Shown here one piece after another: positions 210 through 4,664 of a stretch of 4,664 bases of DNA. This DNA comes from a virus (Duplodnaviria > Heunggongvirae > Uroviricota > Caudoviricetes). Position numbers and translations under genes: made by a program. The stretch's first letter is position 1. Each line of letters opens with the position of its first letter. Under the pieces are notes generated by a model. That model searched no databases and was not told the DNA's origin. It saw only the letters and a program-made list of their open reading frames with translations. Where the stretch lies: the IMG/VR virus record IMGVR_UViG_2537562173_000009; one strand, written 5' to 3'.

Positions 210-907
210 AAATCACGCTGCCATCCTCCGGCACCACGCTGATAAGCCTGGCTGACGGACAGGGGAATCCGGTCAGCGTGGAGGTCCAGTCCGTCACCGA
301 CGGCGTGAAGGTAAAAGTGAGCCGTGTTCCTGACGGCGTTGCAGAATACAGCGTGTGGGGGCTGAAGTTGCCAACGTTGCGCCAGCGCCTGTTCCGCTGT
401 GTGAGTATCCGTGAGAACGATGACGGCACGTATGCCATCACTGCCGTGCAGCATGTACCGGAAAAAGAGGCCATCGTGGATAACGGGGCGCACTTTGACG
501 GCGACCAGAGCGGCACGGTGAATGGTGTCACGCCGCCAGCGGTGCAGCACCTGACTGCCGAAGTCACCGCAGACAGCGGGGAATATCAGGTGCTGGCGCG
601 CTGGGACACGCCGAAGGTGGTGAAGGGGGTGAGCTTTATGCTTCGCCTGACCGTGGCAGCGGATGACGGCAGTGAGCGGCTGGTCAGCACGGCCCGGACG
701 ACGGAAACCACATACCGCTTCAGGCAACTGGCGCTGGGGAACTACAGGCTGACAGTCCGGGCGGTAAATGCGTGGGGGCAGCAGGGCGATCCGGCATCGG
801 TATCGTTCCGGATTGCCGCACCGGCAGCGCCGTCGCAGATTGAGCTGACACCGGGGTATTTTCAGATAACCGCCACGCCGTGTGGAGGCTGTTGGCCAGC
901 CGAGTGA
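164..907 (+). CDS. J: gpJ-like fragment B (frame 2). J-like sequence starts at about 170; the ATG at 164 is probably fortuitous.
   Basis: This is the 247-aa ORF from the track. From '[21 protein letters not shown]' to '[13 protein letters not shown]' it is collinear with the middle of lambda J. The last 8 codons ('CGGCWPAE*') are out-of-frame relative to the continuing J sequence. Confidence 0.6.
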
Positions 908-1964
908 TGATGCATCCGGCTATCTGAATTTTTTCAAAGGAGAGATAGGGAAAACCCATCTGGCTCAGGAGTTGTGGACGCAGATTGATAACGGTCAGCT
1001 TGCGACTGACCTGGCTGAAATCAGGACGTCAATTACGGGTGTCAGCAATGAAATCACGCAGACCGTCAATAAGAAACTGGAAGACCAGAGTGCAGCGATC
1101 CAGCAGATACAGAAGGTTCAGGTTGATACAAATAATAACCTGAACAGCATGTGGGCTGTGAAGCTGCAGCAGATGCAGGACGGACGCCTTTATATCGCGG
1201 GTATTGGTGCCGGTGTTGAGAATACTCCTGACGGTATGCAGAGTCAGGTGCTGCTGGCGGCGGACAGGATTGCGATGATTAATCCTGCGAATGGCAACAC
1301 AAAGCCGATGTTTGTTGGGCAGGGCGATCAGATATTCATGAACGAAGTGTTCCTGAAATATCTGACGGCTCCCACCATTACCAGCGGTGGCAATCCCCCA
1401 ACGTTTTCACTGACACCTGATGGTCGACTTTCTGCGAAAAATGCGGATATCAGCGGTAACGTGAACGCGAACTCCGGGACGCTCAACAACGTCACGATTA
1501 ATCAGAACTGTCGGATTCTGGGAAAACTGTCAGCTAACCAGATTGAAGGTGATATTGTCAAAACGGTGGGAAAAGCCTTTCCGAGAAATGGCAGTTATGC
1601 CAGCGGTACAATAACGGTCACTGTGTACGATGACCAGGCTTTTGACCGTCAGATAGTAGTCCCCCCCGTTCTGTTTCGTGGGGGTAAGCATGAAAACTTC
1701 AACAGCAACAACCAACAGTCATACTGGTATTCAACCTGTAAGCTGCAGGTACTGAAGAACGGACAGGAAATCTTTCAGCAACCCGCGACGGATGTCAGCA
1801 GGGTATTTTCATCAGTCATTGATATGCCTGCCGGACACGGCCATGTCACCCTGACTTTCAATGTTTCTTCATATGGTGCTAATAACTGGACGCCAACGAC
1901 CAGTATCAGCGACCTTCTTGTTGTTGTGATGAAGAAATCTACAGCCGGTATCAGTATCAGTTGA
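882..1964 (+). CDS. J: gpJ-like fragment C (frame 3), the C-terminal receptor-recognition part of J.
   Basis: This is the 360-aa ORF (GTG at 882). It contains conserved J motifs ('MWAVK', '[31 protein letters not shown]', '[46 protein letters not shown]', 'FDRQIVV', '[15 protein letters not shown]', 'AGISIS*'). The stop is TGA at 1962-1964. The last ~150 aa diverge from lambda J. Confidence 0.65.
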
Positions 1965-1983
1965 ATTTTATAACCCAGATACG

Positions 1984-2010
1984 GGCGCCAGAAATGGCGC
2001 CTTTTTTATT
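1984..2010 (+). terminator. Rho-independent terminator downstream of J.
   Basis: There is a perfect 7-bp stem, GGCGCCA (1984-1990) pairing with TGGCGCC (1995-2001), around a GAAA tetraloop (1991-1994). It is followed immediately by TTTTTTATT (2002-2010). Confidence 0.7.
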
Positions 2011-2022
2011 TGTGGAGTGAAT

Positions 2023-4083
2023 ATGGCAGTACAGATTTCAGGCGTGCTGAAAGACGGTGCAGGAAAACCGATACAGAACTGCACCATTCAGCTCAAAGCA
2101 AAACGTAACAGCACCACGGTTGTGGTGAACACGGTGGCCTCAGAAAATCCGGATGAAGCCGGACGTTACAGCATGGATGTCGAGTATGGCCAGTACAGCG
2201 TTATCCTGCTGGTTGAAGGTTTTCCGCCTTCACATGCCGGGGCCATCACCGTGTATGAGGATTCTAAGCCGGGGACATTGAATGATTTTCTGGGCGCTGC
2301 AACAGAAGATGATGTTCGTCCGGAGGCACTGTATCGTTTTGAAAAGATGGTGGAAGAGGTGGCACGCAACGCTGAAGCCGCCTCTCAGAGCGCAGCGGCA
2401 GCAAAGAAATCAGAAACAGCAGCGGCATCGTCCAGGAATGCGGCGAAAACATCAGAGACGAATGCAGGTAACAGCGCGAAAGCGGCAGCTTCTTCAAAAA
2501 CAGCCGCACAAAACGCAGCAACAGCGGCAGAACGTTCAGAGACAAATGCCCGTGCGTCAGAAGAAGCCTCCGCAGACAGTGAAGAGGCTTCCCGCCGTAA
2601 TGCAGAGTCAGCCGCTGAAAATGCCGGAGTCGCCACCACAAAAGCGCGGGAGGCCGCAGCAGACGCAACAAAGGCCGGGCAGAAAAAGGATGAGGCTCTG
2701 TCGGCAGCGACACGGGCTGAAAAGGCGGCAGACCGCGCAGAAGTCGCAGCGGAAGTGACTGCAGAGCCCTATGCGAATATAGTGCCGCCGCTGCCTGATG
2801 TGTGGATACCGTTTAACGATTCACTGGATATGATTGCGGGTTTTTCTCCGGGCTATAAAAAAATAGCTATTGGTGACGATGTGGTTCAGGTCGCCAGTGA
2901 TAAACAGGTTAATTTCAGTCGCGCATCAACGGCAACATATATCAACAAATCTGGCGAACTGAAAACGGCGGAAATTAATGAGCCGCGATTTGAGTGTGAT
3001 GGCCTGCTTATTGAGGGACAAAGAACGAACTACATGCTCAATTCGGAAAGTCCAGCCAGCTGGGGGAAGTCATCAAACATGGATGTGCCCGAAACCGGGA
3101 CAGATAGTTTTGGTTTTACTTATGGAAAGTTTGTCTGCAACGATTCTCTGGTTGGGCAAACTTCGGCTATTAATATGGCATCAATTGCTGCAACAAAGTC
3201 AGTTGATGTCTCAGGCGATAACAAGTACGTGACAACCTCATGCCGTTTTAAAACAGAACGACAGGTAAGGTTACGTATACGGTTTGATAAGTATGATGGT
3301 AGTGCAACAACTTTTCTTGGCGATGCGTACATTGATACGCAAACGCTTGAAATTAATATGACAGGTGGGGCTGCCGGCAGAATTACGGCACGAGTCAGGA
3401 AGGATAAGACCACAGGCTGGATTTTTGCAGAGGCAACGATTCAGGCAATTGATGGTGAGTTAAAAATAGGCTCTCAGATACAGTATTCTCCTGAGCGGGG
3501 TGGGGCAACAGTATCTGGTGACTATATTTATCTTGCCACCCCACAAGTAGAGAATGGGCCGTGTGTATCATCATTTATTATTTCAGGAGGCAGCGCAACG
3601 ACAAGAGCCAGTGATTTGGTTAGTATCCCCACCAGAAATAATCTTTATAAGTTACCATTTACTTTTTTACTTGAGATTCATAAAAACTGGGATATTGCAC
3701 CAAACGCCGCACCCCGCGTGTGGGATATAGCAGCAGCCAATACCGGGCAATCAGCAATTGCAGCAATCAACAGAGGTAGTGGTAAGTTATATATGAGTCT
3801 GTCAAACCCTTCAGGCTTGTATGTTAATAGCGCAGCGACAGATGTATTTGCAGAGAAAACCACATTTGGATGTATTGCAAAAGCTGATGGTCACTTTCAT
3901 GTGGTGACAAATGGTAAAGCGGTTAATGAAGTTTATTGTGAATATAATGGTGTGACCGCTGATAAAAATATCCGATTTGGAGGGCAGACGAATACTGGAG
4001 AACGACATCTGTTTGGCCATATTCGCAATTTCCGCATATGGCATAAAGAATTAAATGACAGGCAATTAAAAGAGGTCGTATGA
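2023..4083 (+). CDS. stf: Side tail fibre protein (lambda Stf family N-terminus, Ala/Ser-rich shaft, divergent C-terminal receptor-binding domain).
   Basis: It is a long ORF, open from GTG at 2017. The ATG at 2023 is the preferred start: it is preceded by GGAG (2014-2017) with a 5-nt spacer and gives 'MAVQISGVLKDGAGKPIQNCTIQLKAKRNSTTVVVNTVASENPDEAGRYSMDVEYGQYSVILLVEGFPPSHAGAITVYEDSKPGTLNDFL', which is near-identical in pattern to the lambda Stf N-terminus as I recall it. The low-complexity Ala/Ser/Thr/Glu shaft is typical of side tail fibres. The stop is TGA at 4081-4083. Confidence 0.9.
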   Translation: MAVQISGVLKDGAGKPIQNCTIQLKAKRNSTTVVVNTVASENPDEAGRYSMDVEYGQYSVILLVEGFPPSHAGAITVYEDSKPGTLNDFLGAATEDDVRPEALYRFEKMVEEVARNAEAASQSAAAAKKSETAAASSRNAAKTSETNAGNSAKAAASSKTAAQNAATAAERSETNARASEEASADSEEASRRNAESAAENAGVATTKAREAAADATKAGQKKDEALSAATRAEKAADRAEVAAEVTAEPYANIVPPLPDVWIPFNDSLDMIAGFSPGYKKIAIGDDVVQVASDKQVNFSRASTATYINKSGELKTAEINEPRFECDGLLIEGQRTNYMLNSESPASWGKSSNMDVPETGTDSFGFTYGKFVCNDSLVGQTSAINMASIAATKSVDVSGDNKYVTTSCRFKTERQVRLRIRFDKYDGSATTFLGDAYIDTQTLEINMTGGAAGRITARVRKDKTTGWIFAEATIQAIDGELKIGSQIQYSPERGGATVSGDYIYLATPQVENGPCVSSFIISGGSATTRASDLVSIPTRNNLYKLPFTFLLEIHKNWDIAPNAAPRVWDIAAANTGQSAIAAINRGSGKLYMSLSNPSGLYVNSAATDVFAEKTTFGCIAKADGHFHVVTNGKAVNEVYCEYNGVTADKNIRFGGQTNTGERHLFGHIRNFRIWHKELNDRQLKEVV
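2365..2760 (+). repeat. Low-complexity Ala/Ser/Glu/Thr-rich repetitive coding segment (fibre shaft) inside stf.
   Basis: The translation is 'RNAEAASQSAAAAKKSETAAASSRNAAKTSETNAGNSAKAAASSKTAAQNAATAAERSETNARASEEASADSEEASRRNAESAAENAGVATTKAREAAADATKAGQKKDEALSAATRAEKAADRAEVAAEV'. Short motifs recur (SETNA twice, AA(K/E)(T/R)SETNA), and the DNA is rich in gcagc/gcggc repeats. This generates spurious ORFs on both strands. Confidence 0.8.
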
Positions 4084-4358
4084 AAGATTTAACTTTGAAG
4101 TTTCATGACAAACTGCAGTTTAAGGCCTTCCTGTCATCTCTTGACTGGGAGGAGGATGAAGACCTCCAGAATAAACTGTTAGTCGATGAAATTGGTTTCA
4201 CCTACACAGAAACAGGGGTAACAGAAGAGGGAGAACCTGTCTGTGTCCGGAATGACGGTTATTTTGTCAACATTCGCATTCTTGATGACTTGTTTGATGT
4301 TTCTGTATTCTCTGATTATGTCGTGGAGCTGGAAACACCGCTTCGGGAATGGAGCTGA
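4080..4358 (+). CDS. Hypothetical small acidic protein (92 aa), translationally coupled to stf. Possibly a fibre-tip accessory or assembly factor; it is not recognisably Tfa.
   Basis: Its ATG (4080-4082) overlaps the stf stop TGA (4081-4083) as ATGA. An SD-like AAAGAGG lies at 4069-4075. The ORF is very Asp/Glu-rich ('DWEEDEDLQNKLLVDEIGFTYTETGVTEEGEPV...') with no hydrophobic segment. It shares the low GC (~35-42% by hand count) of the stf 3' domain. Confidence 0.65.
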   Translation: MKDLTLKFHDKLQFKAFLSSLDWEEDEDLQNKLLVDEIGFTYTETGVTEEGEPVCVRNDGYFVNIRILDDLFDVSVFSDYVVELETPLREWS

Positions 4359-4370
4359 AAGGAGGAAATA

Positions 4371-4664
4371 ATGGATATAAGCCCCTTACTTCATGCGCTT
4401 TGTGCTGTGGCTGCGCAGATACTGGTTGGTCTTTTTACCGGAAACTGGGCTTACGGAGCGATAGCCGGTTGTACGTTCTTCATTGCGCGTGAACATACCC
4501 AGGCAGAATATCGCTGGATTGAAATGTTCGGGCATGGCAAGCGAATGAATATGCCGTGGTGGGGCGGTTTTGATCCGCGAGCTTGGGATGTGGCAAGCCT
4601 GATGGATTTTGCTGTGCCGGTGGTGGCGTGTCTGCTGGTCTGGCTGTTGGTTAATCGTGGGTGA
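4371..4664 (+). CDS. Hypothetical small membrane protein (97 aa, two predicted transmembrane helices). Candidate moron / accessory gene.
   Basis: There is a strong SD, AAAGGAGG (4358-4365), with a 5-nt spacer to the ATG at 4371. The stop is TGA at 4662-4664. Hydrophobic stretches are 'LLHALCAVAAQILVGLFTGNWAYGAIAGCTFFIA' and 'LMDFAVPVVACLLVWLLV', flanking a Trp-rich loop 'EHTQAEYRWIEMFGHGKRMNMPWWGGFDPRAWD'. GC returns to about 53-60%. Confidence 0.7.
   Translation: MDISPLLHALCAVAAQILVGLFTGNWAYGAIAGCTFFIAREHTQAEYRWIEMFGHGKRMNMPWWGGFDPRAWDVASLMDFAVPVVACLLVWLLVNRG

Follow-up and report, generated by a model that had tools for sequence, protein, structure and literature searches.

A small acidic protein gene coupled to the lectin-like end of phage side tail fibres: a candidate dedicated accessory protein

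The small genes of the Tfa/gpU type (PF02413 Caudo_TAP; lambda Tfa, Mu gpU, P2 gpG) are located directly downstream of a phage fibre gene and co-expressed with it, and their products presumably work at its C-terminal end, with some Tfa proteins reportedly remaining bound to the tip. The locus considered here resembles this arrangement in that a small gene, orf92, lies directly behind a side tail fibre gene, stf. However, orf92 has no sequence similarity to Tfa, differs from it in predicted fold and is shorter, with 92 aa vs roughly 140–200 aa (194 aa in lambda Tfa and 142–151 aa in the Caudo_TAP proteins of Mu-like prophages that carry the orf92-type pair); moreover, the fibre end is a lectin-like beta-sandwich in the case of orf92 and a trimeric fibre tip in that of Tfa. 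The same Mu-like prophages also hold an ordinary fibre and Caudo_TAP pair and, thus, both systems coexist. The S74 chaperone (PF13884; T5 pb1, DT57C LtfA/LtfB, endosialidases) is similar in serving the maturation of lateral-fibre ends, and in the same T5-like locus, but it is a domain of the fibre chain that is cleaved off. Peptidase_S74 (PF13884) is absent from the Pfam matches of stf, and the stf fibre end has neither an S74 intramolecular chaperone nor a Tfa; in many other carriers of the small gene an S74 domain sits on the distal fibre encoded behind it. DT57C LtfA/LtfB was considered as a model and set aside, this system having an S74-tipped LtfA, a joint of the phiEco32 gp14/gp15 type and no small protein.

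Two further systems are related through the fibre end itself. The RcGTA head spike fibre Rcc01080 (6tb9/6tba/6tsu/6tui) is homologous to residues 331–531 of stf and constitutes a lectin-like, polysaccharide-binding appendage, which binds capsule polysaccharide (PMC7296036, PMC10218006); the protein produced alone in E. coli bound cells. Unlike the stf end, it is a single chain on the capsid and not on a tail fibre, it has 325 aa with a match that stops at residue 285, before the LamG-like part of the stf tip, and its gene is followed by capsule genes instead of a small partner. The closest arrangement is that of phage IrisVonRoten (Tequintavirus, BASEL Bas32), which shows the same module and gene order: bas32_0022 encodes the fibre (Gp22, with a 'galectin-like' C-terminal domain), bas32_0023 a 92-aa homolog of orf92 and bas32_0024 a distal T-shaped fibre, whereas no distal fibre gene is present in the window, i.e., the whole 4,664-nt stretch of phage DNA analysed here. 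The published BASEL fibre model does not contain the small protein, whose GenBank label is only 'tail fiber protein', and in phage EC100, a close relative of IrisVonRoten, the small protein is 51% identical. No published study of an orf92-type protein was found in the literature on BASEL, phage 21, Laminin_G_3 tail fibres or T-shaped fibres, and the family is previously uncharacterised.

The fibre-end module and the gene behind it

The window is phage 21/ev017-like. The gene stf occupies 2023..4083 on the + strand in the ORF list; its product has 686 aa with the start codon annotated in phage 21, an ATG, and 688 aa with a GTG start at 2017. The gene is 99.95% identical to CPT_21_22 of phage 21, annotated as 'side tail fiber', its N-terminus matches PF08400 (E 1e-68) and its profile match is phrog_1419 ('tail protein'). 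The fibre-end module (~430 aa; residues ~255–688; 2779..4080, +), delimited by full-length alignment to the neighbours of small-ORF homologs and by a drop in GC, is composed of a GTA head-spike-fibre domain and a LamG-like domain. The first of these (residues 331–531; 3007..3609, +) scores 55.3 bits against NF048003 of NCBIfam, with a cut-off of 36, and matches Rcc01080 (6tb9 and others) at E 7e-10 in a phmmer search against the PDB; by analogy with this protein it is probably glycan-binding. It is also the most variable part of the module and, therefore, likely to contact the receptor. The C-terminal LamG-like (concanavalin-A-like) domain (3700..4065, +) is basic, ends in GHIRNFRIWHKELNDRQ and matches PF13385 (Laminin_G_3) with 23.9 bits, under the cut-off of 27.6. 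Laminin_G_3 is also recorded in Mu-like prophage homologs, unmarked for a 498-aa protein and as 'weak' for a 532-aa one, and the H[IV]RN[FL]R[IV]W motif of the LamG-like end is conserved family-wide.

The module and orf92 share a low-GC stretch, with 42.2% GC for stf 3100–4083, 42.7% for orf92 and 37.5% in the lowest 200-nt window, vs 55.4% for the N-terminal part of stf, 53.1% for orf97 and 62.8% for J part 1. A low-GC cassette had been described in the first-pass annotation, and the contrast stands (42% GC against flanks of 53–63%), although its start has to be moved from 3100 to near 2780, since the break in composition and the break in homology both fall near 2780–2810 (stf residue ~255–265).

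The gene orf92 (4080..4358, +) encodes a small acidic alpha/beta protein of 92 aa that belongs to the phrog_1361/phrog_18574 family. At the coupling junction (4070..4083, +), a Shine-Dalgarno-like AAGAGG at 4070–4075 is followed by a 4-nt spacer and by ATGA, in which the stf stop TGA (4081–4083) overlaps the orf92 ATG (4080–4082); the overlap noticed at first reading is thus confirmed at 4080–4083. Downstream, orf97 (4371..4664, +; phrog_1443, E 2e-58) encodes a predicted two-pass membrane protein, for which two transmembrane segments are annotated in phage 21. It neighbours orf92 in lambdoid loci only and lies outside the conserved pair, its place being taken by a second fibre gene in virulent phages and by the baseplate hub in Mu-like prophages. 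A scan of the junctions of stf, orf92 and orf97 revealed no site resembling a promoter or a terminator, and the three genes are read from the sequence as what appears to be a single operon.

The orf92 product is strongly acidic (pI 4.10; 22 D/E vs 8 K/R; net charge −14) and has no membrane-type segment, since its highest 19-residue Kyte–Doolittle mean is only 0.83; in both respects, as well as in its lack of likeness to Tfa, the initial description was accurate. No Pfam family was matched at E<=0.01 by orf92 or by any of 30 diverse relatives, Tfa/Caudo_TAP (PF02413) included. Homology searches placed this protein in phrog_1361 (E 8e-42, residues 1–91) and phrog_18574 (E 3e-6), matched by 30/30 and 23/30 of those relatives, respectively, but returned no relative in Pfam, NCBIfam or the PDB; a weak match to Tetrahymena p19 (PDB profile search, E 0.018) was taken as chance. 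Neither orf92 nor orf97 gave any match in NCBIfam or PADLOC. The family amounts to 451 matches at E<=0.001, with lengths of 85–110 aa, and orf92 carries the motifs M[KR]D.xL[KR]F, D.IG, GY[FH]VN[IL]R and C-terminal P.R.W recognised in the alignments. Close pairs give dN/dS values of 0.22–0.41, which is only moderate constraint. Because of this purifying selection and the 451-match family, orf92 is considered a real gene. An AF2 model built from a 94-sequence alignment (pLDDT 92.6), which replaced a poor single-sequence model (pLDDT 59), shows a compact beta-alpha-alpha-beta4 sandwich that matched no known structure, and a C-terminal tail (residues 80–92) that is conserved yet less ordered (pLDDT 67–86). 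Several long proteins (P0063, P0094, P0100, P0110 and others) were rejected as orf92 fusions, consisting of PKD-like repeats that match the family via a 'Y.[VI]NVR[VI].DDDGG' hairpin, and the exhaustive search yielded no true fusion between the small protein and a LamG protein.

Pairing of the small gene with the module across phages

The small gene is near-obligately paired with the fibre-end module and tightly coupled to it. The last ~430 aa encoded directly before the small-ORF homologs align with the whole of stf residues 255–688 at 25–100% identity; among these upstream products are proteins of 498–565 aa from Mu-like and other prophages (E 1e-29 to 1e-46). In the locus scan, 98 of 102 small genes overlap by 1 or 4 nt with an upstream gene that ends in a homolog of stf 255–688, the four exceptions being two IS insertions and two cut contigs. 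Moreover, in the more divergent half of the family (~30% identity) all 80 loci have the small gene directly behind the module, 79 of them overlapping. In the opposite direction, a search from the tip motif found the small gene behind the module in 5/5 species genomes and 78/79 viral contigs (83/84). At one locus, L171, the small gene is missing although both the tip and a distal fibre are there. Overlaps of the ATGA/GTGA or TAATG/TGATG kind occur in 98/102, 68/78 and 79/80 loci of three surveys, and, with few exceptions, homologs overlap the end of the upstream gene by 1 or 4 nt.

The pair is carried by lambdoid, T1-, T5-, 9g- and HK578-like siphoviruses and by the baseplate clusters of Mu-like myoviruses. 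It is located after J in lambdoid phages, within the lateral-fibre locus of Drexlerviridae, Nonagvirus/Seuratvirus, Dhillonvirus and Tequintavirus, and, in Mu-like prophages, flanked by the genes of the DNA-circulation protein and of the baseplate hub. The first-pass annotation had linked orf92 to the fibre end and had named homologs in non-phage contexts, unlinked to fibres, as the observation that would speak against this; the neighbourhood survey gave the opposite outcome, with homologs following the same module, nearly always at a 1- or 4-nt overlap, in the element groups listed above. Since the family stands almost always directly behind one module in many unrelated phages, orf92 most likely serves this fibre end as its own helper or as an accessory subunit, rather than being a stray passenger.

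It is most improbable that orf92 is instead an independent passenger merely placed downstream of the fibre gene, whether as a moron or as a DNA mimic or other anti-defence product. It is small, very acidic and unannotated, and the lambdoid region past the tail fibre genes does hold passengers (sitABCD follows in phage 21, whose morons differ from those of lambda according to the phage 21 announcement). Nevertheless, the 1–4-nt overlap with one structural module persists across lambdoid, T1-, T5-, 9g-, HK578- and Mu-like elements at ~30% identity, the scan found no promoter-like site of orf92's own, and there is no PADLOC match. The DNA-mimic idea raised at first reading is likewise disfavoured, acidity being all that speaks for it: orf92 shares a strong net negative charge with Ocr/ArdA, but it sits in the late tail operon, overlapping a fibre gene, and not in an early position independent of structural genes; it keeps this position in all contexts surveyed; and its model is a compact sandwich, neither an elongated DNA-like helical bundle nor similar to any known mimic.

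The small protein could also be a pure adaptor or hinge, a counterpart of gp35 in the T4 long-tail-fibre knee, that joins a distal fibre to the LamG-tipped end of the proximal fibre and has no role in folding; this is quite unlikely. An adaptor would agree with the order of proximal fibre, small gene and second fibre found in virulent siphoviruses and some prophages, with the distal fibres bearing an N-terminal M[AV]TKT[VI]IP[ST]DIT.LK, which were seen only directly behind the small gene, in four phage groups, and with IrisVonRoten, whose distal T-shaped fibre is modelled as attached to proximal Gp22 (BASEL) and where the small protein Gp23 is encoded between the two. Virions of the carrier phage SIA3lw contain both flanking fibre proteins; the small protein is not listed in their analysis, the one virion protein study found for a carrier, which is uninformative on a 10.8-kDa product because the smallest identified band was 19 kDa. 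However, purifying selection maintains the small gene in two large groups that have no distal fibre gene beside the pair: the lambdoid clade of the window type (identities as low as 63%, with saturated dS), in which orf97 follows orf92, and the Mu-like clusters, in which the hub gene comes next and the nearest fibre is an ordinary baseplate fibre with its Tfa gene ~4 kb downstream. Its role is therefore with the upstream protein. Furthermore, at least three unrelated kinds of N-terminus are found among the distal fibres encoded behind the small gene, and the distal fibre at L171 is present without it.

Allele exchange and divergence

Among lambdoid prophages, orf92 alleles 91–96% identical to that of the window are found behind tips that are only 25–57% identical over their full length, and these alleles travel with the downstream orf97 (100% identical), a movement with orf97 and not with a given tip allele that is also what an independent passenger might show. 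The differences among them cluster in codons 9–16, which indicates a recombination joint at the 5' end of orf92. The converse is also observed, with tips 91–94% identical over residues 301–480 accompanied by orf92 only 63% identical. Thus, the earlier proposal that orf92 arrived with the tip domain holds at the level of the family but not of its alleles, and the term tip-specific is not supported in that wording. Since one nearly unchanged orf92 allele occurs with LamG-like domains 25–57% identical, any interaction must use conserved and not allele-specific features.

The divergence of orf92 correlates more closely with that of the last 68 residues of its partner (r 0.84) than with that of the middle lectin part (r 0.61–0.64), a correlation confounded by physical linkage and shared ancestry. 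Moreover, the charges of the two proteins are complementary: pI is 4.05–4.80 in all 116 family members examined, and that of the last 140 aa of the partner is 8.6 in the window and 9.1–9.9 in relatives, the preceding 300 aa having a pI of 4.6–5.2. A uniformly acidic family opposite a basic domain, together with a coupling that suggests roughly stoichiometric synthesis, could also be expected of a transient cap that covers the glycan face of the lectin end in the producing cell and on fresh particles and later detaches. Such a mask, an idea proposed for other fibre chaperones (PMC10579305; cited in PMC11990801), would keep the lectin end from being wasted on debris or on polysaccharide of the host itself, but it is distinctly improbable. 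Against it, the spike-fibre domain, likely the receptor-contacting part, correlates least with small-protein divergence, and orf92 bears no similarity to the S74-like caps described in PMC10579305.

A proposed role at the LamG-like end

The preferred reading, to which we give about an even chance, is that orf92 acts as an accessory protein dedicated to the fibre end made of the GTA head-spike-fibre and LamG-like domains, and that it attaches to the LamG-like end either to chaperone its assembly or to remain there as a subunit. Physical binding, its site and the role as chaperone or subunit are what we infer from the pairing, coupling and charges described above. In this proposal, orf92 would be transcribed together with stf in the late tail operon, and ribosomes terminating at the stf stop would restart 1 nt upstream to translate it, so that the small protein would be made beside each fibre chain and in step with it. 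The acidic alpha/beta protein would then bind the basic C-terminal LamG-like domain, probably involving its conserved, otherwise unstructured C-terminal tail (P-x-R-x-W), and would aid the folding or solubility of this end, to which it may stay attached as a small peripheral subunit. In T1-, T5-, 9g- and HK578-like and some lambdoid phages, in which a second fibre gene comes next, the LamG end and the small protein may together seat the distal fibre. Lectin beta-sandwich domains mostly fold unaided, which counts against a chaperone role, and the L171 tip without a small gene is a further counterpoint to it.

A bolder extension, which is unlikely, is that the small protein is a new virion-retained subunit of the fibre end that forms, with the LamG-like domain, a universal socket for exchangeable distal fibres (M[AV]TKT[VI]IP[ST]DIT.LK and others). 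If so, a proximal fibre could be re-armed by the swap of one downstream gene, and the lectin end itself would be exchanged by recombination at the small gene's invariant 5' end.

The O-antigen or capsule types within reach of a siphovirus are decided by its lateral fibres, and host-range engineering has these fibres among its prime targets; this fibre-end module is found in several of the coliphage groups isolated and used most often (T1-like, T5-like, 9g-like, HK578-like, and lambdoid). Should the small gene be needed for the folding of the lectin end or the carriage of a distal fibre, transplants of that end must include it, and structure predictions of fibres that omit its product, as the BASEL model appears to do, would be incomplete. 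The proposal also attaches a function-level hypothesis to one family with several hundred 'hypothetical proteins', and the two genes make up a unit that can be tested, recognised by an overlapping position directly behind the module, a feature defined in the present work that orf92 shows at its ATGA junction.

A fibre end module and its overlapping small gene

The window is nearly identical to the tail-end region of phages 21 and ev017, both lambdoid; over 881-4664 it differs from each at 2 of 3784 nt. The 3' part of J is followed by the side tail fibre gene stf (2023-4083), the small gene orf92 (4080-4358) and orf97 (4371-4664; phrog_1443), which encodes a predicted two-pass membrane protein; in phage 21, sitDCBA come next on the opposite strand. 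Given the strong terminator-like hairpin between J and stf (1983-2002; 8 pairs and then a T run), which is annotated in phage 21 as well, expression of stf, orf92 and orf97 would rely on late-operon transcription reading through it, which Q antitermination provides for in lambda. A scan for promoter-like and terminator-like sites between stf, orf92 and orf97 found none.

The stf product begins with a lambdoid N-terminal domain (PF08400) and an alanine-rich shaft. These are followed by a module of ~430 aa that starts at residue ~255 and contains a GTA head-spike-fibre domain (residues 331-531; NF048003 match; Rcc01080 in the PDB, E 7e-10), and by a LamG-like C-terminus, for which PF13385 scores just under threshold and whose final residues are GHIRNFRIWH. 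Rcc01080, the head spike fibre of RcGTA, is a flexible, lectin-like single-chain appendage binding capsule polysaccharide (PMC7296036, PMC10218006). The matching end of Gp22, the proximal lateral fibre of the Tequintavirus IrisVonRoten, is termed a 'galectin-like domain' by the BASEL authors. The first-pass annotation had described an AT-rich cassette starting at 3100. The low GC that it ascribed to both fibre tip and orf92 is borne out (42% over 3100-4358 versus 55% in the N-terminal part of stf, 53% in orf97 and 63% in J), but composition and homology break instead near 2780-2810 (stf residue ~255-265). Its reading of the junction also agrees with the sequence: the orf92 start overlaps the stf stop as ATGA, and AAGAGG sits 4 nt 5' of the ATG. 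The 92-aa product is, as described there, strongly acidic (pI 4.10; 22 acidic versus 8 basic residues) and free of hydrophobic stretches. Moreover, orf92 is under purifying selection (dN/dS 0.22-0.41 in close pairs); in distant pairs dS is saturated and dN is 0.25-0.47.

Phage records with an orf92 homolog number 160-206 and come from lambdoid phages, Drexlerviridae, Nonagvirus/Seuratvirus, Dhillonvirus and Tequintavirus. The homologs trail fibres with this tip, an association that the earlier annotation had raised. The pair was found in 98 of 102 loci of the first set, where the last ~430 aa of the upstream gene align to stf 255-688 and the small gene starts 1 or 4 nt within the stop of that gene; an IS insertion accounts for two of the four exceptions, a cut contig for the other two. 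The more distant half of the family gave 80/80 loci, 79 of them overlapping. In the reverse direction, the tip motif led to the small gene in 5/5 species genomes and 78/79 viral contigs, so that a single locus among 84, L171, bears the tip without a small-gene homolog. In Mu-like prophages of the Leclercia type, a protein of 498-532 aa takes the partner position. It shows homology to stf 255-688 (E 1e-31 to 1e-46), lies between the DNA-circulation protein and the baseplate hub, and precedes a 93-94-aa orf92 homolog, with the same overlap. This near-constant pairing indicates that the conserved unit consists of the end module and the small gene, as judged from gene neighbourhoods, with variable flanks on both sides.

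Some loci depart from this layout. At L171 (3055-4060), a 560-aa fibre is followed by a 111 nt gap and a 297-aa distal-fibre-like gene. In phage D2 (L002, 6152-8800) and in L034, the 3' end of stf is interrupted past tip residue ~381 by a mobile element of three ORFs, which parts the truncated fibre gene from intact orf92 and orf97. The window match is equally truncated in phages 4A7, 1W, 3W and Lambda_4C10 (query 1-1151 only), which probably carry the same insertion.

The orf92 family and its proposed role

The orf92 protein matches two families of unknown function, phrog_1361 (E 8e-42) and phrog_18574, and has no match in Pfam, NCBIfam or PADLOC. A word-indexed search recovered relatives from Escherichia and Shigella only; an exhaustive profile search and then another with a broad alignment gave a family of 451 proteins of 85-110 aa, including members from prophages of Leclercia, Atlantibacter, Enterobacter, Silvania, Buttiauxella and Aeromonas and from uncultured phages. 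Shared motifs are M[KR]D.xL[KR]F, D.IG, GY[FH]VN[IL]R and a C-terminal P.R.W. The AF2 model, built from a 94-sequence alignment, is confident (pLDDT 92.6, pTM 0.78) and predicts a beta-alpha-alpha-beta4 sandwich with a conserved, less ordered C-terminal tail. Further matches (P0063, P0094, P0100 and P0110 among them) were rejected as relatives: they are very long repeat proteins with PKD-like 'DWGDG...Y.V.V.V.DDDGG' units, which score through one beta-hairpin-like stretch and constitute a false-positive trap for the family HMM. Records filed under Campylobacter or Listeria phage (MG065692.1, MG065652.1, OR847733.1 and OR848352.1) hold a T5-like or coliphage-like small gene with 66-74% identity to the EC100 copy; mislabelling or contamination of these entries is probable.

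Every one of the 116 members examined is acidic (pI 4.05-4.80); the partner ends in a basic stretch of 140 residues (pI 8.6-9.9), preceded by an acidic one of 300. Rcc01080 has the spike-fibre domain; its gene lacks a small partner, capsule genes coming next, and the protein produced alone in E. coli bound cells (PMC10218006). Together with the translational coupling, these features suggest a small protein that would dock on the LamG-like end of every nascent fibre chain and serve as an assembly chaperone, perhaps retained as a subunit. A transient cap is also possible. The single virion analysis located for a carrier phage, that of SIA3lw, shows the fibre proteins on both sides; its smallest identified band was 19 kDa, and it is hence uninformative on the 10.8-kDa small protein. 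Three features contradict the alternative of a passenger gene or a DNA-mimic-like accessory protein riding in the cassette: the overlap kept with one structural module, the late-operon position and the compact predicted fold. No study discussing the orf92 protein turned up in the literature searched, and GenBank names the family 'hypothetical protein', with one exception ('tail fiber protein'). The family is best described as new, with a putative role of a known kind, that of a fibre accessory protein.

Genes downstream of the pair

A second, distal fibre gene, often with an S74 domain, lies 3' of the small gene in virulent siphoviruses and in a number of prophages. Four groups share its N-terminal motif M[AV]TKT[VI]IP[ST]DIT.LK, which within the phage collection is found only directly 3' of the small gene. 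In T1-like, 9g-like and T5-like phages and a prophage (L009 4792, L010 4789, L011 5289, L004 8341), the likeness spans ~35 residues (M[AV]TKT[VI]IP[ST]DIT.LK.[DE]VST...D[IV]S.LK.DV), probably a common docking peptide, and the remaining sequences differ. A pure adaptor for the distal fibre is disfavoured, since lineages exist without such a fibre next to the pair: orf97 follows in the window-type lambdoid clade and a hub gene in the Mu-like group, and the small gene is under constraint in both. These lineages speak for a small protein that acts primarily on the module encoded upstream, any seating of a distal fibre being secondary.

Found in lambdoid loci only, orf97 stands there where other loci have the distal fibre gene; it starts 12 nt past orf92 behind its own AAGGAGG and could be a lysogenic-conversion or exclusion factor.

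Allele exchange and the disrupted J gene

The earlier proposal that orf92 arrived with the tip domain holds for the family, given the linkage described, but not for alleles. Alleles 91-96% identical to that of the window follow tips only 25-57% identical (residues 301-688); they have a 100% identical orf97 downstream, and their differences concentrate in codons 9-16. Conversely, tips 91-94% identical over residues 301-480 can be 39-50% identical over residues 546-688, with orf92 at 63%. These mismatches indicate recombination joints within the end module and at the orf92 5' end. Divergence of orf92 correlates best with that of the first (r 0.88) and last (0.84) tip segments and least with that of the lectin middle (0.61-0.64), values that are confounded by linkage (57 distinct pairs). 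Codons 9-16 (4104-4127) read HDKLQFKA or PGNREFKS in alleles that are otherwise 93-96% identical, and the version matches the tip allele. Codons 1-8 (MKDLTLKF), which are invariant, and the conserved stf end coding for GHIRNFRIWH look like a recombination joint for fibre-end swaps.

Compared with phage 21, ev017 and E. coli prophages, J is disrupted in the window by a 22-nt insertion at 147-168 (GGCGGTGAACAGCAAAAATGCG), a partial duplicate of the following bases, and by a clean 200-nt deletion at the 880/881 junction. Together they divide J into ORFs 43-210, 164-907 and 882-1964, through either decay of this prophage copy or alteration of the window.
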